A stretch of DNA of 64,000 nt. Source: a virus. This document shows, one piece after another, positions 44,526 to 63,614 of the stretch. The stretch lies in the IMG/VR virus record IMGVR_UViG_3300045988_164340, positions 96,001 to 160,000 of that record; one strand, written 5' to 3'. Every line of letters starts with the position of its first letter. Within the stretch, counting starts at the first letter, position 1. A program made the position numbers and the translations under genes. Below the pieces are notes generated by a model, which did not search any database, had not been told where the DNA came from, and was given only the letters and a program-made list of their open reading frames with translations.

Positions 44526-44554
44526 TTGACAAAAATGAATTTGTGTGTTACAAT
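44526..44554 (+). promoter_or_regulatory. plus-strand promoter firing against the minus-strand block (module 1)
   Basis: TTGACA, 17 nt, TACAAT, TGTGT upstream. Confidence 0.65.
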
Positions 44555-44560
44555 ACACAC

Positions 44561-44803
44561 AGAGTTAAGAGACCCGTAACCTCTCAACTCTGTGTATTAT
44601 GTTTTAGTTTCCTTATAGCTCAAGGAAACCAGTTAACACTATTACATAGTAATAAATGTTAAATTTGTAGTTTATTTGTTTTATTTTCTACATGGTCTTT
44701 CATCTCCTTTCTTCCTTAAGACAAGGGTTTCATTTATATGAACAGTTTACGGGGCTGGAGTTTTAGATAGGAACAGGGTCACTCCTGTTCCTTTTCTTTT
44801 TCT
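44561..44803 (+). ncRNA. antisense RNA of module 1 (about 240 nt)
   Basis: 5' hairpin 44557-44595; covers micro-ORF and SD; terminator ggaacagg / cctgttcc 44770-44791 then T-run. Confidence 0.5.
44613..44693 (-). CDS. micro-ORF M*KIKQINYKFNIYYYVIVLTGFLEL (TAG codon 2)
   Basis: AAAGGAGA SD, ATG TAG; paralog of 53459-53539. Confidence 0.5.
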
Positions 44804-45255
44804 TCGTAAGGCTTAAGAGGAATATGATTGCAAGTGGAATATTCGCCTGTGTTAATATTCATCAAGAAATCTTGACCACTTTTGTAACAAAGAAACTTGA
44901 TTTCATCTCCAAAATCATCCACTTCATATACACTCTTATCTCCACAATAAGGACAGCGAGGCTCACGATACTGGCCAAAGCGAATATCTTTCTGATACTC
45001 TTCAGACTGAGGTTTACTCCAAACCTTGACAGAGAAAGTATTACCAGATTTATCATCAGGGTCAATCTCTGCCATGCAAATATCCTGTTCCACATCCTGT
45101 CCATCACGAACAAAGACAATGTTTACACCATGATACCCTTCTTCCTGTTCATAATAGATTCTGAACTGACCATTGGGAGTATCGACAGAGACGTAAGGAT
45201 AGGAATTATTCTTTGCAGAGTGGATAATCATTTCGTTAAAATTCTTGTTAGACAT
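44779..45255 (-). CDS. hypothetical protein
   Basis: Track ORF. Confidence 0.6.
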   Translation of the reverse strand: MSNKNFNEMIIHSAKNNSYPYVSVDTPNGQFRIYYEQEEGYHGVNIVFVRDGQDVEQDICMAEIDPDDKSGNTFSVKVWSKPQSEEYQKDIRFGQYREPRCPYCGDKSVYEVDDFGDEIKFLCYKSGQDFLMNINTGEYSTCNHIPLKPYEEKEKEQE

Positions 45256-45292
45256 AGTTTTCTTTCCTTTCTTAAATCAAAAATGTTTGTAG

Positions 45293-45835
45293 TTACCAGC
45301 CGTAAACATTGCGAACTTGCTTACCAATAGCGCGGGTATACTTGGTAATATCCTTGGAAGTTGCTTTACCACGATATAGCTTCCAACAGAACTTGTCAAG
45401 CTGGTCAGAAGAGATTTCAGGTTTCACCTCCCTATATAAAATATAATTAGTGCCATCATGGTGAGTTTGCTTAGAGCGAAGATTGTTATGAGAATCAACC
45501 CACCATTCTCCATAACCACAATCAGCATCAAACGAAAGACAAGCTCTGATATTCTTTTCATCTTTAAGCTTGTAGCCTGTTCTTCTACCGTTCCATAAAC
45601 CCAAATCAACGATGGCAATAATACGTCCTTCGGTGGGGATATTAAGATTAGCCTGTTCATCGTGAAAATATTCAGAGCTCAAAAGATACATTTCTTCAAT
45701 GTAATCATCTTCGGTTTTAGTGGAAGAGTCAATTTCATTCATCTCCCACATCTCTTCAATACCTTCACGCCAGTCTTCAAGATTGAGGTCGTAGTTGCTC
45801 CAAATGATGTGCTTGTTAGGGTTCTTCTTAGCCAT
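45293..45835 (-). CDS. hypothetical protein
   Basis: ATG at 45835 after AGAAAGGAA. Confidence 0.6.
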   Translation of the reverse strand: MAKKNPNKHIIWSNYDLNLEDWREGIEEMWEMNEIDSSTKTEDDYIEEMYLLSSEYFHDEQANLNIPTEGRIIAIVDLGLWNGRRTGYKLKDEKNIRACLSFDADCGYGEWWVDSHNNLRSKQTHHDGTNYILYREVKPEISSDQLDKFCWKLYRGKATSKDITKYTRAIGKQVRNVYGW

Positions 45836-45896
45836 AATCACAATTCCTTTCTTTTTTGCTATAATTAGAATGCTTTGATATAGAAAAAGCTGGGGA

Positions 45897-46451
45897 TTAT
45901 TCCCCAGCAAATCCTTTGAAAGTTTCAACAATCTTGTTCTTTTCTTCAATGACCCTCTTAGTTGTACTTTTGATGCTGTAAATAAGATTATCCCTCAATG
46001 TAGAATAGATTCCATATTCATCCCATTTAGCAAGCCAACCATCTTTGTCTTTAAGCAGAGAATCAGGACAACACTCAGGAGAAGCATCAAGCACAACAGA
46101 ATCGCAAACATAATTACCATTTCTCCAAGTGATATAATAACGACTACCTTGTTTGTTAACTGCGATACTTTCATCATTACCATAATCTCTATAATAATGA
46201 GCATGAAGATTTGTTCTTGAAAAGAGATTAACTTCTTCAGCGATTTTCACCAAAGAAAGAATTTGGTTAACAATCACAGTCCACTTAGCTCTACCGATTG
46301 CTTCTGTACGAGGGATATAATATTCCTTTGTAGCTTCACAAAGAGTTTTGGCATTCTGATAACGCTGAAGAAGTTCCAGCATTTCGGTGTCTTCGTTTTC
46401 CTTGCAAGTAACGGTAACGGTCATGTTTTCATAAGTCTTAGTGTTAGTCAT
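45897..46451 (-). CDS. hypothetical protein
   Basis: Track ORF. Confidence 0.6.
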   Translation of the reverse strand: MTNTKTYENMTVTVTCKENEDTEMLELLQRYQNAKTLCEATKEYYIPRTEAIGRAKWTVIVNQILSLVKIAEEVNLFSRTNLHAHYYRDYGNDESIAVNKQGSRYYITWRNGNYVCDSVVLDASPECCPDSLLKDKDGWLAKWDEYGIYSTLRDNLIYSIKSTTKRVIEEKNKIVETFKGFAGE

Positions 46452-46519
46452 AATATAAACCTTTCTCCCCGTATAGCCGTTGGGACAGCTTAATTTTATT
46501 ATTTTCCTTAAAATAAAGA

Positions 46520-46720
46520 TTAACCGATGATAGAAAGAATTGTGTTATAGATATTTTCTGTGTCTAAATCAGAGTCGTTTGACGGATAAGCATTACAAAT
46601 AGCATCTTTTTCTGTAATAGTTAGCTCATCCCACTTCTTGTTGAAAGGATAGTTCAAAGAAGTTTCTTCTTCAAAAATCATATAATCTTTTACAGCTTGT
46701 TAAATTTCTTTTTTGTTCAT
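46520..46720 (-). CDS. hypothetical protein with in-frame TAA at codon 7 (46700-46702), or 6-codon uORF plus reinitiation at ATG 46681
   Basis: GAAGGAGATATAAAA-ATG at 46720; frame open 59 codons beyond the TAA. Confidence 0.4.
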
Positions 46721-46786
46721 TTTTATATCTCCTTCAAGTTATTTGGTAAGGGTGGAAGATTTGCTTCCACCCATATACCTTAGATA

Positions 46787-48403
46787 TTAGTCACGAGGAG
46801 TAACACGAACTTTGAGCTTGTTTTTCTTGGCATACTCACAAATAGCTTTGTACTCATCCTCAGTGATACTACGGTTGGAAGCTCCTCTTGCCTGAACAAT
46901 AGCTTCGTTTTCAAGCTCAATAGTAACCAAAGGCTTATCAGTATCTTTTGTCTTACGAAGGAAAACAATCAGGCAATTTCTCTTGATTATTTTGCTCAGG
47001 TAACTGTACACACAATGATTCAACGCAGAACCTTCGTGCTTGACATCATCTGCATTCTTAGGACGAACAATACTGTATGTCTTATCCTCCGTGACAAAAG
47101 ACTTGAAATCTTTGTAAGCATTTTCAAACATCTCAGCCTGTTCCTCAGTAAGCTTAACTTCATAGTTGCGAGAAGTGATATCATGAGTCTGCTTAAGGTA
47201 AGAACTATAAAGAGTAGGCTTGATATCCATTGAAACGCACATATCAAGATAGTCACGAAGTTCACCCATAAACGAGTTTAAAGTTTTAAAGCCTTGATTG
47301 ACAGCCTCTTCACAAACATAATCCATAAACTTACCAAAAGTGTAGAACTGATAAAATTTGGAATTTCTATAATAATTATTATTCCTAAGATAAGCCTGTA
47401 AAGTGCTAGAAAAAACTTTCCCACCATATCCGCCAATTTCAACATGATTGAATTCAAATTCTTCATCCCAATACTTTGCTTTTTCAATAATGTCAAACCA
47501 TTCCTGATTGGTGTAATGACAGAAATCTTCTAAAGTCATGTTGCCATTATTACCGTAGTAGTAATTTTTACTATCCTCTTTAAAAGCGGAAGTGACAATG
47601 TTTTGTAAATTCATCCAATCATCAAGGATATTTCTATCATTAGCTTCTTTATACTCTGCTTTGGTAAGATGAATAAGTTTATAAACAGGTTCAGCGGTTT
47701 CAACTTTAAAACTAAGAAGAGCATTTTGAATGGATTTAGGAGCAGTGCGAAAGATGATTTCAGTGGATTTGTTTCTGCTTAATGCGAATCTCAATTCTCT
47801 GAAAGTATATTTAACCCCGATATTTTCGATAGGAATATCCCAGACTTGAGAGATAAAATCAATTGCGCTATCTCCCATTCCAGCTTCATAAACAGGGCCA
47901 TCACCATCACTGACTGGGGTAGCATTAGGCTCAAGGATAGGAATTAACTGTTCACCATTCATAATAAAGTTGCAACAGGCGTTATTGGTGGCAATTCTAT
48001 ATCTGTAATGACGAGATACAATAGCACCAAGAGGGAAACAATAACCAACATTGACCCAGAAATCACCGCCTTTCAAATTTACTTCCTTAATGATAAAAGT
48101 ATTAGGCGTAAGATAATCACGACTGGTAGGAGCACCAGTGAGCAAATCGAAATACAGCTCGACATCAGAACGGTTCGAACTATAGTGAACAATGATTTTC
48201 TTTCCATGAGAAGTAAAATCGCTGTTGTAACGATTGTTCTGAACCTTAGTCATTTCAACTCTTGCTTCTTTGAGTTGGTCAGAGAGATGTTTGATACGAG
48301 CATTGATTTCCTTTTCTTTAGCGGAGACTTCGTAGTTCTTAAAGAAGCTTTCATAATCATGAGTGGTAGACTTGTAGAAGTTAGCGATAGCAGTGTTAGA
48401 CAT
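46787..48403 (-). CDS. PcfJ-like protein
   Basis: C-terminal LNHCVYSYLSKIIKRNCLIVFLRK...PLVTIELENEAIVQARGASN pattern. Confidence 0.6.
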   Translation of the reverse strand: MSNTAIANFYKSTTHDYESFFKNYEVSAKEKEINARIKHLSDQLKEARVEMTKVQNNRYNSDFTSHGKKIIVHYSSNRSDVELYFDLLTGAPTSRDYLTPNTFIIKEVNLKGGDFWVNVGYCFPLGAIVSRHYRYRIATNNACCNFIMNGEQLIPILEPNATPVSDGDGPVYEAGMGDSAIDFISQVWDIPIENIGVKYTFRELRFALSRNKSTEIIFRTAPKSIQNALLSFKVETAEPVYKLIHLTKAEYKEANDRNILDDWMNLQNIVTSAFKEDSKNYYYGNNGNMTLEDFCHYTNQEWFDIIEKAKYWDEEFEFNHVEIGGYGGKVFSSTLQAYLRNNNYYRNSKFYQFYTFGKFMDYVCEEAVNQGFKTLNSFMGELRDYLDMCVSMDIKPTLYSSYLKQTHDITSRNYEVKLTEEQAEMFENAYKDFKSFVTEDKTYSIVRPKNADDVKHEGSALNHCVYSYLSKIIKRNCLIVFLRKTKDTDKPLVTIELENEAIVQARGASNRSITEDEYKAICEYAKKNKLKVRVTPRD

Positions 48404-48468
48404 AATCAATTTTCCTTTCTTAATTAGACGAAATGTTTGTAGTGACTATATATTAAAGGGAGGAGGGA

Positions 48469-49155
48469 TTAACCCTCCATCACCTTTTTACAGAAAGCTT
48501 TGTATTTCTGACTATTGAGTACACCAAGAATTTTTTCTTTAGCTTCGGGCTTACTCTTATAGTAGTCAGAGTAGTAGTCAGAGTTATAACCAAAATGTCT
48601 CTGATAAATGATATCAGGATTTTTCTTAAGCAACGCTTCAAGAGGACAATAAAGGCTTACAGTAACCTCTTCGCCCTTGTACTTGTAAGGCATCTTGATG
48701 TAGATATCGCAAGAGCCAGAACCACAAGTAGGAACATAAGCATCAAACTTATATTTTTTCAGATAAGGATAAGCCATGAGAATTGCTTCATTGAAAACTT
48801 TTCGAAGATAGACACTCTGATAATCACGAGAAACAATATACTGGTAAGCATCTTCGTAATGGTCTCTTTTCCAACCATTACGTTCTTTTGTGAATCTAAA
48901 ATTTCTCTTGATTTCAGGGAGACGTGTGTAATGGGCTTCATAGTAGCTAACACTATTTGTAGACACAGGAATATACTTGATACCACAGATATCTTTCATC
49001 TTGATTTTCTCATTTACAAGCCAAAGAAGGACATGAGTTGGGAAACACTTTTCCCACACATCCCATTCTTTGATGAACTTTTTAGCTCTTTCGTAGCCGA
49101 CAAATTTCTCGTTGAGATAAGTACCCTGATACTGAGCATAGATAGCCATAGTCAT
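48469..49155 (-). CDS. hypothetical protein
   Basis: Track ORF. Confidence 0.6.
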   Translation of the reverse strand: MTMAIYAQYQGTYLNEKFVGYERAKKFIKEWDVWEKCFPTHVLLWLVNEKIKMKDICGIKYIPVSTNSVSYYEAHYTRLPEIKRNFRFTKERNGWKRDHYEDAYQYIVSRDYQSVYLRKVFNEAILMAYPYLKKYKFDAYVPTCGSGSCDIYIKMPYKYKGEEVTVSLYCPLEALLKKNPDIIYQRHFGYNSDYYSDYYKSKPEAKEKILGVLNSQKYKAFCKKVMEG

Positions 49156-49215
49156 AATTCCTTTCTTTTCAATAGATGTGTTGTTGTTTATGTTGTTGTT
49201 TATATTTAAGTAGAG

Positions 49216-49464
49216 TTATTTCTCTACATCAAAGATAACATGAGCACCAGCGATTTTTGTGCGACTTGGAAGCTTATAAAGCTCAGTAATTAAGTTTGTA
49301 TCTCTAGGCTTAAAATGAGGCATAAACGCAAAGTAAAACACTTTGCTATCAAGAGCTTTGTTTTTATAATCGAAACGAGTAACAATAAATAAATAATATA
49401 CTTTGTTACTTTCCGAGTCTGTAGAAATTCCTTCAAAAGTGATAGTAAAATTACCGATAACCAT
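49216..49464 (-). CDS. hypothetical protein
   Basis: Track ORF. Confidence 0.6.
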   Translation of the reverse strand: MVIGNFTITFEGISTDSESNKVYYLFIVTRFDYKNKALDSKVFYFAFMPHFKPRDTNLITELYKLPSRTKIAGAHVIFDVEK

Positions 49465-49477
49465 GTTATTCTCCTTT

Positions 49478-49675
49478 TTAATAAGTTGGATTAGTTTTAG
49501 AAAGTTCCCATGGTTCTTTTTTCAACAGCGCATGGGCTTCTTCATAAGCAGTAAAGAATTCTTGGTCAGTTTTGTAATCATCCATGCTATGAACAAGTTC
49601 TCTGATATAGTCATCCATGAGGGGAATAGATGCTTCAAAATTAACCAGAGTTCCACTGAGATTTTTTACTAACAT
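49478..49675 (-). CDS. hypothetical protein
   Basis: ATG at 49675 after AAAGGAGG. Confidence 0.55.
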   Translation of the reverse strand: MLVKNLSGTLVNFEASIPLMDDYIRELVHSMDDYKTDQEFFTAYEEAHALLKKEPWELSKTNPTY

Positions 49676-49689
49676 ATTTTTACCTCCTT

Positions 49690-49884
49690 TCAAACATCTA
49701 TGGCAAAATTAGCCACACAGAATCCATATTCTTCTTCAAGTCTTTCACAAATAGAGTCTTCCATATCTCTTAAAAAACTGGTACAAAGGTCATCGTACTC
49801 AAGGTCAACTTCAGAGGGAAGGCTTTCACTGGGGACATCGTTTTCATCAATGTCCCATTCAATATTGGTAACGTGAACAATCAT
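49690..49884 (-). CDS. small strongly acidic protein
   Basis: Track ORF; D/E-rich. Confidence 0.55.
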   Translation of the reverse strand: MIVHVTNIEWDIDENDVPSESLPSEVDLEYDDLCTSFLRDMEDSICERLEEEYGFCVANFAIDV

Positions 49885-49962
49885 ACTTAATCTCCTTTTG
49901 TTTTAATTTAAGGGAGAGAGATATTTCACTCTCTCCCATGTTGATGTGTTGAACAGTTGACG

Positions 49963-50454
49963 TTAAATCGAGGGCTGACCGAGCCATTCAATATTGTCTG
50001 CCTTGATAGTCATACAGCCAGTCTCATTGGAAGATGTGAAATAACTATCAGGAACAAAGCCAGTCTTGCGAAGGTCTTCCTTGGAAATTTGCTTTCCATT
50101 TAAATAGTGCTGCACGCGAGGCTTATTGGGAGTGTCATACACACGGAGGTACTCATTGTATTCGCCCTTCTTATTAGTGTGGCAGATGATGCGATTGCTA
50201 CCATCCTTCCACTGACCCCAAGGGAGCTTAGAAGCGGTATCAATAGGAACATTCTTCTCAGCAGCCTTTGCAATTGCCTTCTTGGTGTGCTTGTAGTTGA
50301 CACCGATACGGTAAGTACCGATAACACGCTTAAGAACAGAGACACCAGCTTTACGACCGAGGGCAGAGAGAGTCACATCGGAAACGTAAGCCATTTTGAA
50401 GAACTGACCAGCGGGGATGGAGTTGACCTTGAGGTTGAAATAAGTGTTATTCAT
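49963..50454 (-). CDS. hypothetical protein
   Basis: Track ORF. Confidence 0.6.
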   Translation of the reverse strand: MNNTYFNLKVNSIPAGQFFKMAYVSDVTLSALGRKAGVSVLKRVIGTYRIGVNYKHTKKAIAKAAEKNVPIDTASKLPWGQWKDGSNRIICHTNKKGEYNEYLRVYDTPNKPRVQHYLNGKQISKEDLRKTGFVPDSYFTSSNETGCMTIKADNIEWLGQPSI

Positions 50455-50534
50455 GATATTTCCTTTCTGCCCGTAAACCCGATAGCACAGGATAATAAAT
50501 TGGTTTGTGATAAAAGAGTTATATAGATTCGGGA

Positions 50535-50834
50535 TTAAATTTCGACTTCGATGATTTTACTATCCCAGTTATCATGGTTTAGAGTAGTACCATAAGCCAA
50601 AAGACTTTCGATATCCACCATGTTCTCATCATCCATGAGCTCAAGCTCTTCAAGAATAGACAAAGCTTCTTTTAAAGTTTTCTCATCAATGACAAGAGGA
50701 ACAATATCAATGCCAATGTCTCTGACTGTGCAGAAATCATTAACCATGTGGTAAATGGCTTTTTCCTTCTTATCAAAGAAAGTAGGTTCGTTAATTTCAC
50801 GTTCACAAACGTCAATGTACATGTATTTCTTCAT
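50535..50834 (-). CDS. acidic hypothetical protein
   Basis: Track ORF. Confidence 0.6.
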   Translation of the reverse strand: MKKYMYIDVCEREINEPTFFDKKEKAIYHMVNDFCTVRDIGIDIVPLVIDEKTLKEALSILEELELMDDENMVDIESLLAYGTTLNHDNWDSKIIEVEI

Positions 50835-50836
50835 GC

Positions 50837-50986
50837 TTATTCTCCTTTAATCACATTTACGAGCAGATGATAAATCATTTCATCCGCAGCTTCGGCATCC
50901 TGCATCATAACAGTTACTTCGTCAAAAGCAACATCGTTAATCACTCTGAATGTGGCTCTATCCTTATTCTGGATAATTGTAATCAT
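50837..50986 (-). CDS. 49-aa hypothetical protein
   Basis: GGAGGTG SD and ATG at 50986; below the track size cut-off. Confidence 0.5.
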   Translation of the reverse strand: MITIIQNKDRATFRVINDVAFDEVTVMMQDAEAADEMIYHLLVNVIKGE

Positions 50987-50999
50987 TTATTTCACCTCC

Positions 51000-51332: not shown

Positions 51333-51388
51333 AGTTAAATTCCTTTCTTAATTAGACATGTTGTTTGTAGGTATTATGTGAGTGTGGA

Positions 51389-51814: not shown

Positions 51815-51832
51815 TTTTTATTCTCCTTTCGA

Positions 51833-52843: not shown

Positions 52844-52920
52844 AAGATTTCCTTTCCGAGCTTTAAGCTCTAAACAAAAAAGTTTTTGATATAATGTGTT
52901 GTTTGATTTAAGATGAGATT

Positions 52921-52949
52921 ATTATAAATCTCAAATCCGCAAATGTCAA
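52921..52949 (-). promoter_or_regulatory. minus-strand sigma70-type promoter
   Basis: Reverse complement reads AAATACTTGACA, 17 nt, TATAAT. Confidence 0.7.
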
Positions 52950-53169: not shown

Positions 53170-53198
53170 TTGACAAGATTTATGTTGTGTATTAATAT
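53170..53198 (+). promoter_or_regulatory. plus-strand antisense promoter (modules 2 and 3)
   Basis: TTGACA, 17 nt, TAATAT. Confidence 0.65.
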
Positions 53199-53267
53199 AT
53201 GTATAGATGATAAGAAGAATCCTATACTTCTTACTTACCATCTATACATCTTCGTAATTAACGGCTA

Positions 53268-53339
53268 TTAATTACGGTTATAGATTATCATAATCTACGA
53301 GAGATTATAATAGTAACTTACAAAGAAGATTCTCTACAT
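53268..53339 (-). CDS. micro-ORF M*RIFFVSYYYNLS*IMIIYNRN
   Basis: GGAGG-rich SD, ATG TAG; second TAG at codon 15. Confidence 0.45.
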
Positions 53340-53458
53340 GGCTTTCAACTCCTTTCCTCCTTAGACAAGGGGCAATTATATAACAGTTTATAGGAACTGG
53401 TTATATCGAGCTAAAGAGAATTGCCTATACAATCCTCTTTAGGAATTAATTTAAGTTA

Positions 53459-53539
53459 TTAAAGTTCGTACATCCGGCCAAGAATGATAGAACAATAATA
53501 AACATTAAACTAATAGTTTATTTGTTTGATTGTCTACAT
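53459..53539 (-). CDS. micro-ORF M*TIKQINY*FNVYYCSIILGRMYEL
   Basis: AAAGGAGA SD, ATG TAG; second TAG at codon 10. Confidence 0.5.
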
Positions 53540-53615
53540 AGACATTCTCCTTTCCATTTAGCGTTAATATATAAACAGTTTATAGGAACTGAATATATCA
53601 AAATAGAGCAGGATT

Positions 53616-53795
53616 TTATTCCTGCTCTTTTTGTATTGTGTACAAATACTGCTTTCGCTTTTCTTTGTACTGTTTGTTAATTTTGTACCGATAACTGCCA
53701 TGAGTCTTACGCTGAATTCCTTCACAGCGGTCATAGTACATACCATCGTACTGGGGATACTCTGTGATAGCATTGTTAGGTGTACGTTTAGACAT
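53616..53795 (-). CDS. 59-aa basic protein
   Basis: ATG at 53795 after GGAGGG, overlaps upstream stop. Confidence 0.5.
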   Translation of the reverse strand: MSKRTPNNAITEYPQYDGMYYDRCEGIQRKTHGSYRYKINKQYKEKRKQYLYTIQKEQE

Positions 53796-56115: not shown

Positions 56116-56164
56116 TTTTCTGAATTTCCTTTCATTTTAAAATTGATTGATTGTGTTAGCTGAG

Positions 56165-56506: not shown

Positions 56507-56603
56507 TTCTAAATTTCCTTTCTTTAAGGTGGAGAGGGTATATTTCAACCCTCTCCTATTTTGTTGTTAATTTGATGAGAATTTATGAATAATTGGTTAA
56601 AGA

Positions 56604-57122: not shown

Positions 57123-57228
57123 AGTTTGGCTCCTTTCCGTTTTAACGTCTTGAACGTGACGTAAATTTATTGAGCTTAAAGGCTCATTGAAGTGCAGGAT
57201 ATATTTCAATCCTGCACTCTATCAACCT

Positions 57229-57435
57229 TTACGGCTTTTCAATCAGGTCTTTTATTTGAGCTCTTAAACAAATTAGAGTGCCGATTCTTGTGCAACAATA
57301 ACTAATATCTGCATTGTTACCTTGGGACTTAGCTTCTTTTGCATTTTCAATTTCAATGTCCGTTGCTTGTAACAGTTCATATGCTGCTTGCTTGAGGAAA
57401 TAGTCTGCTCTACCCTGATGGGTTTTGTTATTCAT
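57229..57435 (-). CDS. small helical protein, paralog A
   Basis: DISYCCTRIGTLICLRAQIKDLIEK. Confidence 0.55.
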   Translation of the reverse strand: MNNKTHQGRADYFLKQAAYELLQATDIEIENAKEAKSQGNNADISYCCTRIGTLICLRAQIKDLIEKP

Positions 57436-57450
57436 GTTAATTGTCCTCCT

Positions 57451-57630
57451 TTACAGCTTATCAATCAAGTCTCTAGCCTGAATTTTAAGAGTCACTAGGA
57501 GGCCAATTTCAGTGCAACAATGAGAAATATCAAAGTTATCCCTTAGCTCCTTGATACGCTCAATTTCAGCATCAATTGCCTGTTGAAGAAGGTATTCCGT
57601 TCTGCGCTGGAGGTAAAGTTTGTTGTCCAT
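57451..57630 (-). CDS. small helical protein, paralog B
   Basis: DISHCCTEIGLLVTLKIQARDLIDK. Confidence 0.55.
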   Translation of the reverse strand: MDNKLYLQRRTEYLLQQAIDAEIERIKELRDNFDISHCCTEIGLLVTLKIQARDLIDKL

Positions 57631-57677
57631 AATATTACATTTCCTTTCTTTATTGAGATACAAGATATATTTTAACC

Positions 57678-58004
57678 TTAGAAGTTAACAGCAGGGAAAG
57701 TGAGCAGAAACATATTCCAACAATCCCAATTCTTATCAAGTTCTTTCAAGAGATACGAAGGAGAAATTCTCCAATCAGGATATGAAGGAATACCTTTATC
57801 TTCCAATTGGTCAACAAGTTTAATCCTGTTAAGAGTAAGAAATTCTTTTAACTTTTTCCTGTCGATTTTGTTGAATCCATCTTTTTGAATACATACAGCC
57901 CACATAATATTTTCCAAAACTGTTTTGTCATTAGAAGAATAAACAGGGTAGAAATTGACCCCATCATGGGCAATGAGGACATAATTGTAAGTCCGATTAA
58001 TCAT
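57678..58004 (-). CDS. hypothetical protein
   Basis: Track ORF, GGAGGAGG SD. Confidence 0.6.
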   Translation of the reverse strand: MINRTYNYVLIAHDGVNFYPVYSSNDKTVLENIMWAVCIQKDGFNKIDRKKLKEFLTLNRIKLVDQLEDKGIPSYPDWRISPSYLLKELDKNWDCWNMFLLTFPAVNF

Positions 58005-58006
58005 GA

Positions 58007-58165
58007 TTAAAAATCCTCCTCTTCCTGAGCAACATCAGCTTCAAAGTCATCAGACCAAGTAATATCTTCTTTGCCATAGTCCTTGACCTTAGCAAGAGCC
58101 TCAGATTCAGAATTAGCTTCAACTTCAACGGAGCCATAACGAATGAACAGAACATTGTATTTCAT
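58007..58165 (-). CDS. 52-aa acidic protein
   Basis: AAGAAAGGAAAG SD and ATG at 58165. Confidence 0.45.
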   Translation of the reverse strand: MKYNVLFIRYGSVEVEANSESEALAKVKDYGKEDITWSDDFEADVAQEEEDF

Positions 58166-58194
58166 ATTATACTTTCCTTTCTTAATGGTGTCAA
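58166..58194 (-). promoter_or_regulatory. minus-strand perfect-consensus promoter
   Basis: Reverse complement reads AAATACTTGACA, 17 nt, TATAAT; -10 abuts ATG 58165. Confidence 0.55.
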
Positions 58195-58223
58195 GTATTT
58201 AAAAAGAAATTTTTACAAACTAC

Positions 58224-58252
58224 TTGACAAGTGTTATCATTTGTGTTATATT
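58224..58252 (+). promoter_or_regulatory. plus-strand antisense promoter (module 4)
   Basis: TTGACA, 17 nt, TATATT. Confidence 0.65.
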
Positions 58253-58258
58253 ACACTC

Positions 58259-58490
58259 ATCAAGCAAAGTAGCCTGTAACTTTTACTTGATGAGTGTTGT
58301 TGATTATCATCTTTGGTTAGTTACGATGATAAATGATACGAATAATTGAGATTTGTCTATCCATATCAACATGTAAAATTTTCTACATATTAATTTCTCC
58401 TTTCGTGAGTAGTTATGTAAACAGACTTTACAGGAGTCTGGAGTCTTAAGTAAGACTGGTAGTTGGTAGCTACCAGTCTTTTCTCTTTTA
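58259..58490 (+). ncRNA. antisense RNA of module 4 (about 230 nt)
   Basis: 5' hairpin 58254-58294; terminator agactggtag / ctaccagtct 58453-58479 then T-rich. Confidence 0.5.
58317..58388 (-). CDS. micro-ORF M*KILHVDMDRQISIIRIIYHRN
   Basis: AAAGGAGA SD, ATG TAG. Confidence 0.45.
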
Positions 58491-59420
58491 CTTCTTGTAA
58501 ACCATGTAGGTAAGAAGATAATCACGAATCTTTTCAGCAGGATGACCTTCGTGTTCTTCAATCTTGTCCTGAGCAACACGAACAAACTCATCACAGCTCT
58601 TGTACTGCTTAAGATTCAACAGAAAATAGTTGAATGCCTTGGTATCTTCACAGTGCTTGTAGCAAGCAGAAATTCCTGCTAACATGCGCTGAGTATAAAC
58701 CATATCATCCTTCCAACCAGTCCCCTGAAGAACAGCGAACACAAAACGAAGAGCGTTTTCACCGTCACGTTTAACAATACGATACAGCTCTTCAACTGCA
58801 TTGATGTTATTATAACGATTGATGGTGCTATTGCGATTGGTCTTAACAGTCAGACCAAATTCCTTTGTGACCTGATTGATAATCACTGCTGTGGGCTTCT
58901 TGGCGCAAAGTTCAGCTTTATATCTTTCGTAGCCACGAAGATTAGTTTTACCTTCATTCTGGCTAGCAAACAAATCTGCTTCTTCTTCCAGAGTAAGGTT
59001 GATAAATACTTTGCAAGTGATAGCATAGATGGGGAAGCCTTTACTCTGCATATAAAGCAGAGCACTCAAGGTATGAGCACCATCCATCAAGAAGAGATGC
59101 CAAGTATTACCAACCTTGCGAATAGAAGCTGCTTTAATTTCAACCTTGTTGATATTGAAGTTATTGGTAATTTTAGCTACTTCATAGTTTTTGGGTTCGC
59201 GCTGATAGTGCAAGTCGATTTCAGGCATAAAAAGAGGAATGTCTCTAATTGCCCAGTTACGACCATCCTCTCTCTTTTCAATCTCCCTTTCCACAGAGAG
59301 CTTGAAGGCATAAACGGACTTGGACTGCTCGTTAGTGATTGCCTTGGGCTTAAGTGCATCGAGCAGGACTTCGCTGACGGACTTTTCGTTCTTAATGTTG
59401 GTGAGATTAATCTTCTTCAT
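58488..59420 (-). CDS. ParB N-terminal-domain-like (DGxH) protein
   Basis: LMDGAHTLSALL resembles the ParB/DndB DGQHR box. Confidence 0.45.
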   Translation of the reverse strand: MKKINLTNIKNEKSVSEVLLDALKPKAITNEQSKSVYAFKLSVEREIEKREDGRNWAIRDIPLFMPEIDLHYQREPKNYEVAKITNNFNINKVEIKAASIRKVGNTWHLFLMDGAHTLSALLYMQSKGFPIYAITCKVFINLTLEEEADLFASQNEGKTNLRGYERYKAELCAKKPTAVIINQVTKEFGLTVKTNRNSTINRYNNINAVEELYRIVKRDGENALRFVFAVLQGTGWKDDMVYTQRMLAGISACYKHCEDTKAFNYFLLNLKQYKSCDEFVRVAQDKIEEHEGHPAEKIRDYLLTYMVYKK

Positions 59421-59465
59421 AATTCTAAATTCCTTTCATAACTCAAAAAAGTTTGTAATTATTAC

Positions 59466-59494
59466 TTGACAGATATTATCAAGTGTGCTAAGAT
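59466..59494 (+). promoter_or_regulatory. plus-strand antisense promoter (module 5)
   Basis: TTGACA, 17 nt, TAAGAT. Confidence 0.6.
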
Positions 59495-59500
59495 AAACAC

Positions 59501-59755
59501 AAGTAGAAAGCCTACACTCTCTACTTGTGACGCAATTAAGTGGGATTAATTACGATTGTAAATGATAAAGACTATTATTATGGACCAATAATAGTCAACT
59601 GCTAAGATTTTCTACATAGCAAAGCTCCTTTCTAATTTAATAATACATTAATTCATTGTAGGCTGAATTAATGTGCGAGTGAATAAGTTGGGCTTAAACA
59701 CTCTATTGAGGGATGGAAGTTATTTTCCATCCCTCTAACAATGTTTAAACTTTTT
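59501..59755 (+). ncRNA. antisense RNA of module 5
   Basis: 5' hairpin 59500-59529; ends at conserved element 59693-59750 followed by T5. Confidence 0.4.
59546..59617 (-). CDS. micro-ORF M*KILAVDYYWSIIIVFIIYNRN
   Basis: AAAGGAGC SD, ATG TAG. Confidence 0.5.
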
Positions 59756-59939
59756 CAACTTTGTATGGCCTGCAAGTAACAATATCGAAATTGTTTACAA
59801 GCCATTCAGGTTTGGTTTTTTTAGTATTGAGGAATTTGCAAACAATGTTTGCAAGCACTTCACTGTTAAATACAGTTTTTTCCTTCATACTCATTGTGAC
59901 TGTTACGGATTTTCCGTATTTGTTTACAATCTTAAACAT
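59745..59939 (-). CDS. 64-aa hypothetical protein
   Basis: ATG at 59939 after CGGAGGTG. Confidence 0.55.
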   Translation of the reverse strand: MFKIVNKYGKSVTVTMSMKEKTVFNSEVLANIVCKFLNTKKTKPEWLVNNFDIVTCRPYKVEKV

Positions 59940-60246
59940 GCCACACCTCCGTTTTAACACCTTTGCCATTGTAATAACGACGAGCACCATAATTGGCTCT
60001 ATCACTAAAACATTCAGCACAAGGAATTAATTCCTTACGCTTTCCCTCTTTGATTTCCTTGAGTGAAAGGTTGAAGCACTGCTCAACCTCGCATTTTTCA
60101 CACGTCTTACAGGATTTACCCTTGCAGATATTTTCGCAGAAGTTGTTTTTAACTTTGCAGAGATGCTTAACACCCCAAGAGGAATTCATCTCAGCTAAAG
60201 TCTGGTCGAGAGTGTAATTACGACCCATAACACTAATCTTTTTCAT
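59932..60246 (-). CDS. Cys-rich protein
   Basis: CKGKSCKTCEKCEVEQC. Confidence 0.6.
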   Translation of the reverse strand: MKKISVMGRNYTLDQTLAEMNSSWGVKHLCKVKNNFCENICKGKSCKTCEKCEVEQCFNLSLKEIKEGKRKELIPCAECFSDRANYGARRYYNGKGVKTEVWHV

Positions 60247-60309
60247 TTTACTTTGACTCCTTTCAAGTCTGTATTAAATTTGATTTTGAATTTGTCTTAA
60301 ACTATATGG

Positions 60310-60642
60310 TTAAAAACAAACACGTTTCTTTTTGATTTTGGTAAGCATCCAACACCAAGGATTTCCAAAATCATCTTCAAGAGGAGTAACCTTAATGGTT
60401 ACAAGCACCTCAGTACTGAGATGTTCAAGCACATATTCGAGATTTTTAAGAGAGAAAACATATCTCTCTTTTGTATCATCTTTGGTACTTTTTGCGCACC
60501 ATTTGATGATTTCTTTCAAACTTGAATCAATCAAGCAGTTCAAATTCCCATACGTATCAAGCGCTCTACTAAGAGAAGGCGCTTCTAAATAAGTAGGGTT
60601 GTTTGTAATGGAGCGAATATTGTTTTTCATTTTCTTAGACAT
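60310..60642 (-). CDS. hypothetical protein
   Basis: Track ORF. Confidence 0.6.
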   Translation of the reverse strand: MSKKMKNNIRSITNNPTYLEAPSLSRALDTYGNLNCLIDSSLKEIIKWCAKSTKDDTKERYVFSLKNLEYVLEHLSTEVLVTIKVTPLEDDFGNPWCWMLTKIKKKRVCF

Positions 60643-60679
60643 GACTTTAATTCCTTTCTTTTGTCAAATTGATTAATAC

Positions 60680-60871
60680 TTATACTTGCTTGAGATATTT
60701 AAGGTTTAACTCTAATTTGGAATCCATGATTAAACCCTTTTCTCTTTTGATGCGACCTCTGAGATTATTCAGCGCTTGTTTCTCAGAAGAGGCCATTGTG
60801 TAACCAGAATAATGACAATAATAGTCATGCCATCTGGTTACTGGGCCCTCATAATAATATTTGAGCTTCAT
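60680..60871 (-). CDS. hypothetical protein
   Basis: Track ORF. Confidence 0.55.
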   Translation of the reverse strand: MKLKYYYEGPVTRWHDYYCHYSGYTMASSEKQALNNLRGRIKREKGLIMDSKLELNLKYLKQV

Positions 60872-60888
60872 ATATACCTCCTTTCAAC

Positions 60889-61134
60889 TCAAATAAACTC
60901 TGAGACTTTACCCTCTTCATGGACATAGCCTCCAAGAACTTCAGGACATGACTGGAAATAACCAGACGCATCCTGAATGTGTACGAGAATGGTATCATCC
61001 ATATTCAATGAGCCATTTCGTACTTTCATTCTGAGAGAATTGCGAATTCGTTTCCAAATTTCGCTTCTTTCTTCGAATACATCATAGATGACTTTGCCAT
61101 CTTTTTTGATGTATCCTTTGTACCATCTTGTCAT
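60889..61134 (-). CDS. hypothetical protein
   Basis: Track ORF. Confidence 0.55.
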   Translation of the reverse strand: MTRWYKGYIKKDGKVIYDVFEERSEIWKRIRNSLRMKVRNGSLNMDDTILVHIQDASGYFQSCPEVLGGYVHEEGKVSEFI

Positions 61135-61595
61135 TTGTTTTCACCCCCTTTCTCATGATTCAGGGCAGCTCTTCTTAATTCATCCTGAGAATTATAATAC
61201 TGCTCAAAAGCATCACAACCTTCCCAAGAAATTTTAGATTGAAGCTTTGCAAGCTTTTCAGAGACTTCTGCCAAGTTTTTTTGTGCCTCTTCAAGAGCAG
61301 ATTCCTGTAATGCAATATATGTATCCATTGCAACATTCTTTGCCATAAGAATGGCAGTGAATTCATCTTTGAAGTAACCTTCATAATGTTGAGGCATAAT
61401 ATGTGTTTTCATTTCATTAAAGGTGCTTTCGCGGATGAATTGTTCTCTCAATTCGCCTGAAGCTAGAAAATATACAGGATTTTCATTAGTATTATGAATA
61501 TTCTGAATTTTGTACACTACCATGGTGTTCATGGTAGTAGGCTGACGGTAAATCACGGTATATACATACCCATCTAACGTTGTAATCTTTTTCAT
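61131..61595 (-). CDS. hypothetical protein
   Basis: ATG at 61595 after AGAAAGGAAAA. Confidence 0.55.
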   Translation of the reverse strand: MKKITTLDGYVYTVIYRQPTTMNTMVVYKIQNIHNTNENPVYFLASGELREQFIRESTFNEMKTHIMPQHYEGYFKDEFTAILMAKNVAMDTYIALQESALEEAQKNLAEVSEKLAKLQSKISWEGCDAFEQYYNSQDELRRAALNHEKGGENK

Positions 61596-61623
61596 TTCTT
61601 TTTTCCTTTCTGCTCTTTTGAGC

Positions 61624-61652
61624 TTGACAAATCTTTGTTTGTGTGTTATACT
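61624..61652 (+). promoter_or_regulatory. plus-strand antisense promoter (module 6)
   Basis: TTGACA, 17 nt, TATACT. Confidence 0.65.
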
Positions 61653-61658
61653 TGCTAT

Positions 61659-62010
61659 TGTAATAAGAAAAGTGGTTGACCAATCCACTCTTCTTATTAA
61701 ATTGATTAGTCTAAGTCTAACTTAGATATATCTATCTGGAAGAATTCAATCAGCTATTCAACACTTAGGTGTTGCATATACCAATTAAACTCAAATTCAG
61801 AAGTGATATACTACTTCAGAATAGAACCAATCTTTGCTTTATTACTAAAACTATCCTACATGAATTCCTCCTTTCTTTTAACTTGTTAGTGCTGGTGACT
61901 AACTTGTTATTCATTATCTTATTGGTCAGATAAGATAGAGAGCTTATTCCCATTAAGCACTCTATGAAGGGTAGGAGCATATGTTCCTGCCCTTTAACAA
62001 TGCTTAACCG
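61659..62010 (+). ncRNA. antisense RNA of module 6 (3' end uncertain)
   Basis: 5' hairpin 61660-61698; conserved element 61953-62007. Confidence 0.35.
61706..61861 (-). CDS. 51-residue ORF starting ATG-TAG with two more TAG codons
   Basis: AAAGGAGG SD; M*DSFSNKAKIGSILK*YITSEFEFNWYMQHLSVE*LIEFFQIDISKLDLD. Confidence 0.4.
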
Positions 62011-62339
62011 ATGTAACGTTCCTTGAGAGAACGTGCTTCCATAATGAAAGATTCAAAATCTTCGTTGGAAGTAATTTGTATTCTTTTTTCTTTGATTGGT
62101 CTAGCTATCATATTAAGTTTAGATAGTGTGTATTCACAATACAACTTTATATAATAAGTTGTGTTGTTTTCATTTAACACTCTATCAGGAGAGACATATA
62201 CGTGAAGCCAATAATCTTTCCCAAAGTGTGACTGAGCAAATGCTCCTCTATCTTCCCACTGAGCGAATACTTCAGTATCTTCCCAAGGTTTTGCAATACC
62301 AACTAACATATTGCAGATATCATGGACGGCTAATTTCAT
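62004..62339 (-). CDS. hypothetical protein
   Basis: Track ORF. Confidence 0.6.
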   Translation of the reverse strand: MKLAVHDICNMLVGIAKPWEDTEVFAQWEDRGAFAQSHFGKDYWLHVYVSPDRVLNENNTTYYIKLYCEYTLSKLNMIARPIKEKRIQITSNEDFESFIMEARSLKERYIG

Positions 62340-62366
62340 TTTCTTTGATTCCTTTCTATTAAACCA

Positions 62367-62395
62367 TTGACAAGTACAACTTTATATGTTATACT
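62367..62395 (+). promoter_or_regulatory. plus-strand antisense promoter (module 7)
   Basis: TTGACA, 17 nt, TATACT. Confidence 0.65.
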
Positions 62396-62401
62396 TATTA
62401 T

Positions 62402-62628
62402 TAGAATAAGAGAAGTGCCTACACACCTCTCTTATTAATGAGCTTTTATTCTTCTTAGAAGTTATAGTTCTTTAGAATTACAACTACAACGACGTTTAAA
62501 GAATAATCGACTGAAATAATCTTCTTCATTATTTATTACCTCCTTAAGAAGATAAAAGCAAACAAGAATGTAGGTCCTTATTTACTACAGAGGAGAGATA
62601 GGGGGATATCTCTCCTTCTGTTATGTTT
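62402..62628 (+). ncRNA. antisense RNA of module 7 (about 225 nt)
   Basis: 5' hairpin 62405-62436; terminator ggagagata / tatctctcc 62592-62615 then T-rich. Confidence 0.5.
62455..62529 (-). CDS. micro-ORF MKKIISVDYSLNVVVVVILKNYNF (AAG at codon 2)
   Basis: AAGGAGG SD; synonymous divergence from 63184 and 63396 copies. Confidence 0.6.
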   Translation of the reverse strand: MKKIISVDYSLNVVVVVILKNYNF

Positions 62629-62660
62629 GAGTAGTTTAACGACTTGCTCAGGTCGAGGAG

Positions 62661-63062
62661 TTAGTTCTGATAATCGTCACTTACCAGAACCCATTCTTCT
62701 CCATTACCATCAATGAGATGAATTGTTGTTCCATCTTCACCGATAGTAACTGACTGAAGATTACTAAACCAATTTTCAGTAGTGGTATAGGCTTCTTCAG
62801 TGCCTTTGTCGTAACCAGCGTTGTATGCGCCAGTTACGTCTTCATTAGTGCAGACCTCTGCGGGAGTGCTCTTACTGTAATCAATGTTACAGATAAGAGT
62901 AATGATGCTAATGGCAAGAATAGTCATGATAATGAACATGGCACGAGGATTCATGCTCTTCTTATGCACGATTGCTTCGATATTAATGATAACACCGTAT
63001 ACAATCATGATAATCATGATAGCCACGGCAATGATAACAATAGAATTCATGGTAATAAACAT
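62661..63062 (-). CDS. membrane protein
   Basis: GAAAGGAAA SD; two TM segments. Confidence 0.6.
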   Translation of the reverse strand: MFITMNSIVIIAVAIMIIMIVYGVIINIEAIVHKKSMNPRAMFIIMTILAISIITLICNIDYSKSTPAEVCTNEDVTGAYNAGYDKGTEEAYTTTENWFSNLQSVTIGEDGTTIHLIDGNGEEWVLVSDDYQN

Positions 63063-63095
63063 CTTTATTTCCTTTCTGGTTTTAGTGTCTTTTCC

Positions 63096-63124
63096 TTGAC
63101 AATAGTTGTTTGGTGTGTTATAAT
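63096..63124 (+). promoter_or_regulatory. plus-strand antisense promoter (modules 8 and 9)
   Basis: TTGACA, 17 nt, TATAAT with TGTGT. Confidence 0.7.
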
Positions 63125-63183
63125 GTTTTTAATAAGAGAAGCACCTATATACTTCTCTTATCTGTGTATCTTATTACACTTTA

Positions 63184-63258
63184 TTAGAAGTTGTAATTCT
63201 TAAGGATGATTACTACAACCACATTAAAAGTGTAATTGACAAATGTTATCTTCTACAT
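63184..63258 (-). CDS. micro-ORF M*KITFVNYTFNVVVVIILKNYNF
   Basis: AAAGGAGG SD, ATG TAG. Confidence 0.55.
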
Positions 63259-63395
63259 TTATTTACCTCCTTTAGAAGATAGAAGTATTTAATTGTATAG
63301 GCAACTAAATACTGAGAGCTTATTGCGACTAAGCACTCTATAAGATAGAGGAAGATATTTCTACCTTCCTCTATCCTAACAATGCTCAGTTATGC

Positions 63396-63470
63396 TCAGA
63401 AGTTATAATTCTTCAGTATCGCAACTGTTACAACATTAAGAGCATAATTTACGGAAATTATTTTCTACAT
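63396..63470 (-). CDS. micro-ORF M*KIISVNYALNVVTVAILKNYNF
   Basis: AAAGGAGG SD, ATG TAG. Confidence 0.55.
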
Positions 63471-63614
63471 GGTAATTTCCTCCTTTCCGAGTGCGATTTG
63501 GATTACTAAGCACTCTATTAAGCCCAGTATCAACTCCTTTTGGGGCGGATATTGGGCTTTAACAATGCTTAGGTATTGAGCAGTTTATTGTCATACTCAG
63601 GACAAAAGAGTGGA

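Follow-up and report, generated by a model that had tools for sequence, protein, structure and literature searches.

Micro-ORFs with an amber second codon, opposed by predicted antisense RNAs and flanked by complementary hairpin loops, in a gut phage-like element

The DNA considered here, referred to as the window, is a stretch of 64 kb (positions 96,001 to 160,000 of the IMG/VR record IMGVR_UViG_3300045988_164340) from a large, poorly characterised gut phage-like replicon of ~210 kb. In its ~44-64 kb part, a region of 20 kb, the intergenic gaps of a leftward (minus-strand) gene block, driven by promoters of host type, harbour nine very short open reading frames (micro-ORFs). The comparative evidence indicates that their peptides are under purifying selection, that TAG is a sense codon for glutamine in this element, and that the TAG found at codon 2 of nearly all copies is selectively maintained and not neutral. 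Conserved promoters and terminators on the opposite strand predict a cis-antisense RNA, and a covarying pair of hairpin loops around the ORF is the strongest feature at the RNA level. On balance, and with no great confidence, we lean towards regarding these loci as small-gene cassettes with a two-condition (AND) gate, amber suppression and relief from the antisense RNA, under a cis-antisense control that resembles that of type I toxin-antitoxin (TA) loci.

Micro-ORFs and their conservation

All nine micro-ORFs listed in a first-pass annotation of this DNA are present, at the positions given below and read on the minus strand. Its description of their starts also holds: a Shine-Dalgarno sequence (SD) of the AAAGGAG type lies 6-9 nt before the ATG in all nine, and the second codon reads TAG except in one copy (62455-62529), which has AAG there. 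The copies are named here after their position, and x stands for a TAG codon in the peptides. Twenty-six codons are found in the 44.6k copy (44613..44693, SD AAAGGAG, MxKIKQINYKFNIYYYVIVLTGFLEL) and in the 53.5k copy (53459..53539, MxTIKQINYxFNVYYCSIILGRMYEL), the latter being present in 4 of the 13 genomes compared. The 53.3k (53268..53339, MxRIFFVSYYYNLSxIMIIYNRN), 58.3k (58317..58388, MxKILHVDMDRQISIIRIIYHRN) and 59.6k copies (59546..59617, MxKILAVDYYWSIIIVFIIYNRN) have 23 codons, and the 58.3k peptide is polar and not transmembrane-like. With 24 codons there are the 62.5k copy (62455..62529, MKKIISVDYSLNVVVVVILKNYNF), which is free of TAG and the most hydrophobic paralog, the 63.2k copy (63184..63258, MxKITFVNYTFNVVVVIILKNYNF) and the copy at 63396..63470 (MxKIISVNYALNVVTVAILKNYNF), the first of a tandem pair. 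Finally, the 61.8k ORF (61706..61861) has 51 codons, three of them TAG, and encodes an acidic, soluble peptide. Two tandem pairs are included among the nine copies. Their internal in-frame stops are exclusively TAG, while the terminal stops are TAA in eight and TGA in one. No other place in the window combines a strong SD with ATG-TAG in the way these eight micro-ORFs do, besides a weak 4-codon case at 39408. Standard gene callers miss such ORFs, because they are short and are start-stops under code 11.

The set of relatives comprises 87 copies from 13 genomes, with codon-position counts summed over ortholog groups. Frameshifted ORFs within a preserved RNA structure, which the first-pass annotation had named as counter-evidence, do not occur among them: the ORF length is constant (23, 24, 26 or 51 codons) and there are no frameshifts. 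Variable sites are distributed over the three codon positions as 28:21:65 (chi-square p=4e-7), and as 5:2:18 for the 44.6k orthologs. Nucleotide diversity reaches 0.2-0.33 at third positions, as compared to 0.03-0.1 at positions 1 and 2 and 0.04-0.07 in the 5' untranslated region (5'UTR), and the substitutions in codon alignments are largely synonymous and come in runs. In L001, the 44.6k ortholog starts with TTG instead of ATG and the frame is kept. A genuine internal stop is present in 1 of ~94 metagenome copies, among the matches listed. The earlier proposal that the peptide, and not the RNA alone, is under selection is thus supported by the three-base periodicity and the synonymous changes. 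In the sole apparent pseudogene among these ~94 listed copies, L282:7078 (plus strand; MxRIFFVSYYYNLS*IRIIYNRN, with * for the stop), TAA or TGA replaces the internal TAG of its relatives.

Decoding of TAG as glutamine

The stop codon of the 83 ORFs with 90 aa or more is TAA in 65 cases, TGA in 16 and TAG in 2, and both TAG ORFs run on in frame. A 663-aa ORF (25583-27733, plus strand) has a TAG at 27572, beyond which the frame is open for 53 more codons, to 27733; this TAG is probably read through as Gln. Within the micro-ORFs, codon 12 of the 58.3k type varies among orthologs between CAA, CAG and TAG, and codon 2 of the 44.6k ortholog in L004 is CAG. These exchanges indicate that TAG is a sense codon for Gln in this element, as in code 15, and the peptides would therefore begin with MQ(K/R)I... 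Since TAG is a sense codon, synthesis of the peptides depends on its decoding. The idea that they can be made only if TAG is decoded is strengthened by the swaps with CAG and CAA and by the fact that no genuine gene ends in TAG.

The sense TAGs are not concentrated in late structural or lysis genes, but are clustered in the micro-ORFs and in a gene of 475 codons (29329-30756, plus strand; ATG at 29329, SD AAAGGAG). TAG is found early in this gene (codons 4, 6 and 13) and at five later positions, and the gene is preceded by a promoter at 29232-29260 (plus strand, TTGACA-N17-TATACT). The TAGs at codons 4, 6 and 13 are conserved in four genomes, in which TAG and CAG replace each other at three positions (codons 6, 271 and 326, counted in the compared fragment, which begins at 29563), and synonymous drift persists downstream of the TAGs. 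A search of Pfam gave no match for this gene. It provides another example of amber codons placed near the N-terminus and preceded by a strong promoter of host type.

Retention of TAG at the second codon

In the minus-strand block, no genuine gene has an in-frame TAG, while there are 12 in the nine micro-ORFs, which together amount to ~250 codons. Of 83 distinct copies from viral contigs, 70 have TAG as their second codon. The 13 exceptions consist of nine copies of the TAG-free 62.5k paralog and four others (three with AGT, one with CAG), and these four retain an internal TAG. For the metagenomes, a search pattern was used that accepted TAG or CAG at codon 2 equally. Among the matches listed, all 93 intact copies and the one with an internal stop have TAG (94/94), while the 40-odd other listed matches, nearly all of them due to chance, have CAG and TAG about evenly. 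Overall, and with the metagenome part restricted to the matches listed, ~164 of the 177 distinct copies of the family carry TAG at this position. The base 3' of this TAG is always a purine. A purine after TAG is a context that favours suppression over release. CAG is synonymous here, yet TAG is retained, which argues for selection on the identity of the stop codon itself, at the earliest possible position. The codon-2 TAG thus appears to be selectively maintained.

Antisense promoters and terminators

The first-pass annotation had noted seven promoters on the plus strand, directed against the surrounding genes. All of them were recovered by a promoter scan with scores out of 12. One site scores 12/12 (63096..63124, TTGACA-N17-TATAAT) and four score 11/12, at 44526..44554 (TTGACA-N17-TACAAT), 58224..58252 (TTGACA-N17-TATATT), 61624..61652 and 62367..62395 (both TTGACA-N17-TATACT). 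The remaining two score 10/12, at 59466..59494 (TTGACA-N17-TAAGAT) and 53170..53198 (TTGACA-N17-TAATAT). An extended -10 element (TG) is present in six of the seven, the promoter at 53170 being the one without it. In the 20-kb region, seven sites reach at least 11/12 and five of these are antisense promoters. In relatives the hexamers are invariant while the 17-nt spacers drift. The promoter accompanies ~75 of 85 copies from viral contigs and 86 of 93 metagenome copies among the matches listed.

Four intrinsic terminators on the plus strand, at 44769..44803, 53605..53636, 58452..58490 and 62590..62628, would end the predicted antisense RNAs. They had been described as specific for the plus strand. 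All four were recovered (44769-44792, 53605-53628, 58452-58480, 62590-62617), but specificity fails for the one at 53605, which scores on both strands. The first, which is specific, predicts an antisense RNA of ~245 nt; in L007 it is exchanged for another hairpin, a bidirectional terminator. From the 53170 promoter, a predicted RNA of ~430 nt spans both the 53.3k and the 53.5k ORF. In three modules a long hairpin (AGCATTGTTA...ATAGAGTGCTTA) stands at the place of the terminator. The copy at 63396-63470 departs from the first-pass description in that it has neither the loop hairpins described below nor a promoter of its own. Taken together, these conserved opposite-strand signals predict a cis-antisense RNA.

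Two perfect (12/12) promoters are also present on the sense strand, at 58166-58194 and 52921-52949 (minus strand). The -10 element of the former lies directly next to the start codon (ATG, 58165) of an acidic ORF of 52 codons, the SD of which lies within the spacer, so that transcripts from this promoter would begin inside the 52-codon ORF.

A pair of complementary hairpin loops

In full modules, a 5' stem-loop (5'SL) is located 15-35 nt upstream of the SD and a longer 3' stem-loop (3'SL) 7-25 nt past the stop codon. The stems vary between paralogs, while the loops are complementary to each other within each module. On the minus strand, the loops of 5'SL and 3'SL are CCCGTAA (44743..44757) and TTACGGG (44557..44595) for the 44.6k module, in which the predicted antisense RNA would open with a hairpin made of the complement of the 3'SL. 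They are (T)CCTATA (53384..53399) and TATAGGA (53199..53249) at 53.3k, CCTATA (53576..53591) and TATAGG (53411..53442) at 53.5k, and CCTGTAA (58422..58440) and TTACAGG (58253..58297) at 58.3k. The 59.6k module carries AGCCTACA (59645..59674) and its complement TGTAGGCT (59498..59529), the 61.8k module GACCAAT (61915..61937) and ATTGGTC (61661..61699), and the 62.5k module CCTACA (62561..62582) and TGTAGG (62405..62436). Finally, CCTATAC (63284..63313) and TATAGG (63131..63161) are found at 63.2k, where the 3'SL begins at the predicted start of antisense transcription. With the further types seen in relatives (CCCACA, ACCCGTAT, TCCGTG and one 12-nt pair), there are at least 11 loop types.

With hairpins called independently, 66 of 82 modules have a loop-loop complement of at least 6 nt, whereas only 22% of mismatched pairings do. 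In an anchored alignment, changes on both sides were counted 9, 6 and 14 times for the three variable core pairs, with a single cell left unpaired, the windows of the formal covariation count having been picked by complementarity. The conserved CCTA/CCGTAA-like loop of the first-pass annotation is present, but it is only half of a complementary pair, and its partner hairpin lies upstream of the SD. The covarying loop pair is a new finding and the strongest RNA-level feature of these loci. Since the predicted start of the antisense RNA coincides with the base of the 3'SL, the hairpin at its 5' end shares the loop of the sense 5'SL, and each predicted RNA has a loop X close to the 5' end and a loop X' close to the 3' end. 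The two strands are complementary by necessity, but complementarity within one strand is not given in this way, which argues that the latter is selected. For the 3'SL, the fold is better on the sense strand than on the other in 67 of 71 copies, and the 5'SL has no strand preference.

Other structures add to this picture. In the YNRN family, a hairpin, GTAAYTAA-N-TTARTTAC, encloses the stop and the last codons and shows three compensatory changes, and the 59.6k stop codon lies within a hairpin CGTAATTAA-N6-TTAATTGCG. A CTTCT/CCTT element upstream of the SD sequesters it in part, and the 5'UTR is nearly invariant, exceeding synonymous sites in conservation. Rfam gave no match for the whole window at the gathering threshold, and nothing but a chance miRNA match for 44-64 kb at E up to 1. 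Three further ideas were rejected. A start-codon hairpin (AUGUAG with UUACAU) is not a general feature, as it occurs at 58.3k only. Transcription attenuation was dismissed in view of the missing U-tract after the 3'SL, except at 59.6k, and of the promoters situated between module and next gene. Terminal inverted repeats of the type found in miniature inverted-repeat transposable elements were dismissed as well: complementarity is confined to the loops and does not extend to the stems, and there is no target-site duplication at a 380-nt indel.

Two additional elements should be mentioned. A CTGTT(T/C)A(T/C)ATA motif directly follows the 5'SL at 44720-44745, 53365-53385, 53555-53577 and 58405-58425 (minus strand), and is also seen in distant relatives. 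In combination with a (T/A)TCCA further upstream, this motif could form a weak sense promoter with the hairpin in its spacer; in that case, no sense RNA other than read-through transcripts would contain the 5'SL, which would otherwise be confined to the antisense RNA. Between the stop of the upstream gene and the module, at the place that the antisense terminator takes in other modules, there is a long hairpin of a second repeat family, with copies at 59695..59747, 61954..62004, 63330..63386 and 63507..63569 (minus strand), all of the family T(A/G)A(G/A)CATTGTTA...ATAGAGTG(C/T)TTA. It consists of a conserved imperfect stem around a variable hairpin, with G-U pairs on the sense strand, and the 59.7k copy has one compensatory change from G-C to A-T in comparison with the others. 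Genomes without the 61.8k module keep the 5' arm of this hairpin alone.

Gain, loss and exchange of cassettes

The whole 61.8k cassette (61615..61994, minus strand), comprising long hairpin, 5'SL, ORF, 3'SL and antisense promoter, behaves as a clean indel of 380 nt: L001 and L006 have a precise empty site, where the flanking genes are joined. At 59.6k, two very different ORF bodies are found, KILAVDYYWSIIIVFIIYNRN or RIIFVDLINxIIAIRIIYNRN (L001:6933, L006:6725, L007:7478 and L008:6810 versus the window), in surroundings (5'UTR, hairpins and promoter) that are ~98% identical. This looks like a cassette-style replacement, or a diversifying change confined to the ORF. Since the acidic 51-codon ORF shares the same arrangement, the cassette seems to be a general expression device that is not bound to one peptide.

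Properties of the peptides

With 23, 24, 26 or 51 codons, the micro-ORFs fall within the size range of type I toxins (<60-70 aa, PMC2887945). Their C-termini are polar, bulky or aromatic (KNYNF, YNRN, YHRN, FLEL). Kyte-Doolittle means over 19 residues are below 1.6 for most of the peptides, and the 58.3k type has a grand average of hydropathy (GRAVY) of -0.2. Searches at E up to 10 gave no match of the micro-peptides to toxin families in Pfam and none at all in NCBIfam; the sole Pfam match is a weak, sub-threshold one of CH_2 to the 51-aa peptide (E = 0.031, 14.7 bits, cutoff 27).

The element, its relatives and its genes

At least 17 IMG/VR contigs (108-221 kb) share the gene block, with a protein identity of 75-96%. 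A megablast search against GenBank phages found no close relative, and a 775-aa PcfJ-like protein gave neither a match in GTDB genomes nor an entry in an exact-protein contig index. One peptide family has at least 93 further distinct copies in metagenomes (human-gut and other assemblies) among the matches listed. The neighbouring genes include two that are PcfJ-like, one with DUF932, one ParB-like with DUF6551 and many without assignment. Within the plus-strand block, a TnpB/IS605 OrfB-like gene with a Cas12f-like TNB domain is found at 20860-22179 (plus strand).

Promoters and SD sequences are of the Firmicute/sigma-A type. The sole GTDB contig with family members among the matches listed is L101 (CAVKBM010000181.1, 28 kb), from a metagenome-assembled genome labelled 'Bacteroidaceae bacterium'. 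It has four modules, three with ATG-TAG and a fourth, MSKIIHIDYTYNTCxVLIVKHRN (position 1104), with AGT at codon 2 and an internal TAG; antisense promoters are present in all three modules checked for them. Because sigma-A-type promoters and strong SD sequences conflict with Bacteroidaceae, the label is not trusted as a host call and may be a binning artefact. Other SD-ATG-TAG ORFs recur in unrelated IMG/VR contigs (L022, L028, L033, L048, L052, L061, L089; also L049, L060, L079), for example MxKIRYLQLDLIHRVVLFYHSRLIYTHFYRYRNQN in seven contigs and MxKISLVTLCFFALILF in three. These may be amber-started genes of other recoded phages, or chance matches.

A two-condition gate and its alternatives

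In the proposed gate, the first lock would be the TAG at codon 2, often joined by one or two more within the ORF. Under the standard code of the host, the locus would be a start-stop from which the ribosome stays out, leaving the mRNA fold and the antisense pairing undisturbed. The peptide would be made only under efficient amber suppression, and this dependence would be steeper with two or three TAGs. The second lock would be the opposite promoter, which is near-consensus and of host type, and which could deliver a cis-antisense RNA of 230-430 nt from the first transcription of the DNA onwards. This RNA would open with a hairpin, cover stop, ORF, start and SD, and end at its own terminator or at the long hairpin. 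Peptide synthesis would thus also require that the supply of antisense RNA falls or is outcompeted. The two loops most likely kiss, closing the RNA end to end, or seeding the pairing of cognate sense and antisense RNAs, or both, and module-specific loops would give each paralog its own address. Two locks and a sequestered SD suggest that the product is barred early, and it could be imagined that the peptides are harmful or late-acting effectors.

A more far-reaching version is possible but doubtful: the codon-2 amber would be a sensor of the code state, and the micro-protein genes, address-labelled by kissing loops and guarded by antisense RNA, would remain silent until the element imposes TAG-to-Gln decoding and the host-driven antisense RNA fades. 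If true, this would represent a class of effectors that has not been described before, type I TA-like and gated by the code, and a direct natural demonstration of stop-codon recoding as a regulatory switch. Recoding as a regulatory timer is a hypothesis built on the positions of recoded codons. The cassettes offer a compact natural test object of ~250 nt, with a strong SD, an ATG, a TAG kept by evolution and a short frame that is easily fused to a reporter. For cis-antisense and type I TA control they suggest a new design, in which two paralog-specific hairpin loops show complementarity both to one another and to the loops of the antisense RNA. If the peptides prove to be effectors, they would be among the smallest phage-encoded proteins under clear purifying selection.

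Several observations weigh against the two-condition gate. ARAGORN found no tRNA, a suppressor included, in the window and 57 related loci (including 10 kb past the left end, in all under half of the ~210-kb genome), and no scan aimed at tRNA(CUA) was made. The proposed coupling of peptide production to the TAG-recoding state thus gains from the coding selection, the decoding and retention of TAG and the conserved antisense promoters, and loses from the lack of a suppressor tRNA in the scanned loci. Recoding is sparse, in-frame TAG being missing from most genes, including those in the 10 kb beyond the window, and the 62.5k paralog has AAG at codon 2 in 9 of 9 distinct orthologs and no TAG anywhere. 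At the RNA level, both the sense and the antisense RNA are predictions; the way in which the covariation windows were picked counts here as well, and the loop complementarity is symmetric between the strands; G-U counts do not decide between the two RNAs, and single variants point both ways. No convincing sigma-70-type sense promoter was found for the modules, and weak candidates resembling (T/A)TCCA-N16-19-TATAAT overlap the 5'SL in four of them, so that the 5'SL would be lost from the sense RNA. Lastly, in the hydrophobicity screen of Fozo et al. 2010 (PMC2887945), in which at least 10 of 15 residues have to be I, V, L, F, C, M or A, four of the nine peptides score exactly 10 and five score 7-8 and fail. 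The first-pass description of the peptides as hydrophobic therefore applies to four and not to the other five, among them the acidic, soluble 51-residue copy, and because of these failures a harmful peptide is a guess.

The alternatives differ in what they take to be the product. In RNA-only elements, a plus- or minus-strand RNA would be the product, and the ORF with its ATG-TAG would be incidental. The strong covariation of hairpins and loops and the very conserved non-coding flanks fit this idea, but it is very unlikely in view of the fixed ORF lengths without frameshifts, the three-base substitution periodicity (28:21:65, p=4e-7), the runs of synonymous changes, in-frame stops that are exclusively TAG, ATG-to-TTG and TAG-to-CAG changes that preserve the frame, and a real internal stop in just 1 of ~94 metagenome copies among the matches listed. 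A classical type I TA addiction system would have a stable mRNA for a membrane toxin and an unstable antisense antitoxin; cells losing the element would be killed, and a plasmid-like or lysogenic state stabilised. Small ORFs in several copies and tandem pairs, wholly overlapped by a predicted convergent RNA, would suit such a system, as would the polar or aromatic C-termini, the four peptides out of nine that pass the Fozo screen (PMC2887945), a highly structured mRNA with a partly sequestered SD and the presence/absence polymorphism of modules; the paralog-specific recognition elements recall Sib/Ibs (PMC2943612). We nevertheless hold addiction to be rather unlikely. A transmembrane-like character is missing from five of the nine peptides, among them the polar 58.3k type, which is well conserved, and the acidic copy of 51 aa, there is no match to known toxin families in Pfam or NCBIfam, and a toxin that requires the element's own amber suppressor would be a poor killer of element-free cells. 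Moreover, no sign of plasmid or prophage maintenance was seen, and no search was made for it.

It could also be imagined that the ORFs are cis-acting sensors, amber-dependent translation of which melts the stop hairpin and the 3'SL and alters the processing, stability or transcription of neighbouring early genes, with the peptide acting as a nascent chain. This possibility draws on the location of the modules in the intergenic gaps of one gene block, on the stop codon inside a covarying hairpin just upstream of the 3'SL and on a 5'UTR that is more conserved than the ORF, and the architecture may recall the leader peptides of R1 tap/CopA and ColIb-P9 repY/Inc RNA. It appears distinctly unlikely all the same, as the 3'SL is not a terminator and the next gene is at least 70 nt away, with the antisense promoter in between and, at 58.2k, also a perfect sense promoter. 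In addition, the same cassette carries an ORF of 51 codons that is entirely unlike the others, identical flanks can surround either of two very different ORF alleles, and genomes lacking the 61.8k module simply join the flanking genes.

Comparison with known systems

The closest architecture is that of the Ibs/Sib-type cis-antisense type I TA repeats, and membership of type I TA is not established. Very short ORFs under a cis-antisense RNA, in paralogous and partly tandem copies, are shared with Ibs/Sib of E. coli (PMC2943612, PMC2887945). Sib antisense RNAs discriminate their cognate ibs mRNAs by means of short recognition elements, one of them near the translation start (PMC2943612). In the cassettes, by contrast, the recognition elements would be two hairpin loops that are also mutually complementary on the same strand. 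There is no sequence similarity, most of the peptides here are not strongly hydrophobic, the predicted antisense RNA is longer (230-430 nt) and translation would need amber suppression. Furthermore, the cassettes sit in a phage-like element and Ibs/Sib in the chromosome. With the type I TA systems of Firmicute prophages, such as bsrG/SR4 (PMC3834814) and those of C. difficile (PMC5961336), they would share convergent transcription, initial loop-loop contacts and effects on SD accessibility, and they likewise lie in phage-derived DNA. Those systems differ in that the RNAs overlap at their 3' ends only, the toxins are transmembrane proteins of 34-53 aa and there is no stop-codon gating.

In hok/sok and AapA1/IsoA1, long-distance pairing of the 5' and 3' ends keeps the toxin mRNA inert, and kissing loops start the pairing with the antisense RNA. 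The closure suggested here by covariation alone would be a loop-loop contact of 6-8 bp instead of an extended helix. R1 tap/CopA and ColIb-P9 repY/Inc RNA have antisense-controlled leader peptides with a pseudoknot between a loop and a distal site. In such systems the pairing of the loop competes with the antisense RNA; the cassettes show loop-loop complementarity on the same strand, for which a role of this kind would be conceivable. A leader ORF of this type overlaps the regulated gene or is translationally coupled to it, whereas the gap here is at least 70 nt and holds the antisense promoter and, at 58.2k, a consensus sense promoter too.

The bar minigenes of phage lambda are minimal ORFs of the start-stop type. 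Under the standard code, the micro-ORFs share with them the combination of an SD with AUG-UAG. Start-stop elements of the same minimal form are also described in bacteria (bioRxiv 10.1101/520783). Unlike start-stops, the frame runs on here for 21-49 codons under purifying selection once TAG is decoded.

Finally, there is a link to TAG-recoded phages, in which stop-codon recoding has been proposed as a timer of late genes (Borges et al., bioRxiv 10.1101/2021.08.26.457843) and TAG recoding has been validated by proteomics (PMC9523058). That proposal (bioRxiv 10.1101/2021.08.26.457843) mentions neither antisense RNA nor placement at the second codon, and a combination of type I TA with suppressor tRNAs was not found in the literature searched. 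Common to these phages and the present element are TAG as Gln, a host that presumably uses the standard code and in-frame TAGs proposed to delay expression. In the former, TAG is spread across structural and lysis genes, whereas here it is sparse and placed at the beginning of ORFs (codon 2 of the micro-ORFs; codons 4, 6 and 13 of the 475-codon gene), with predicted antisense RNAs in addition.

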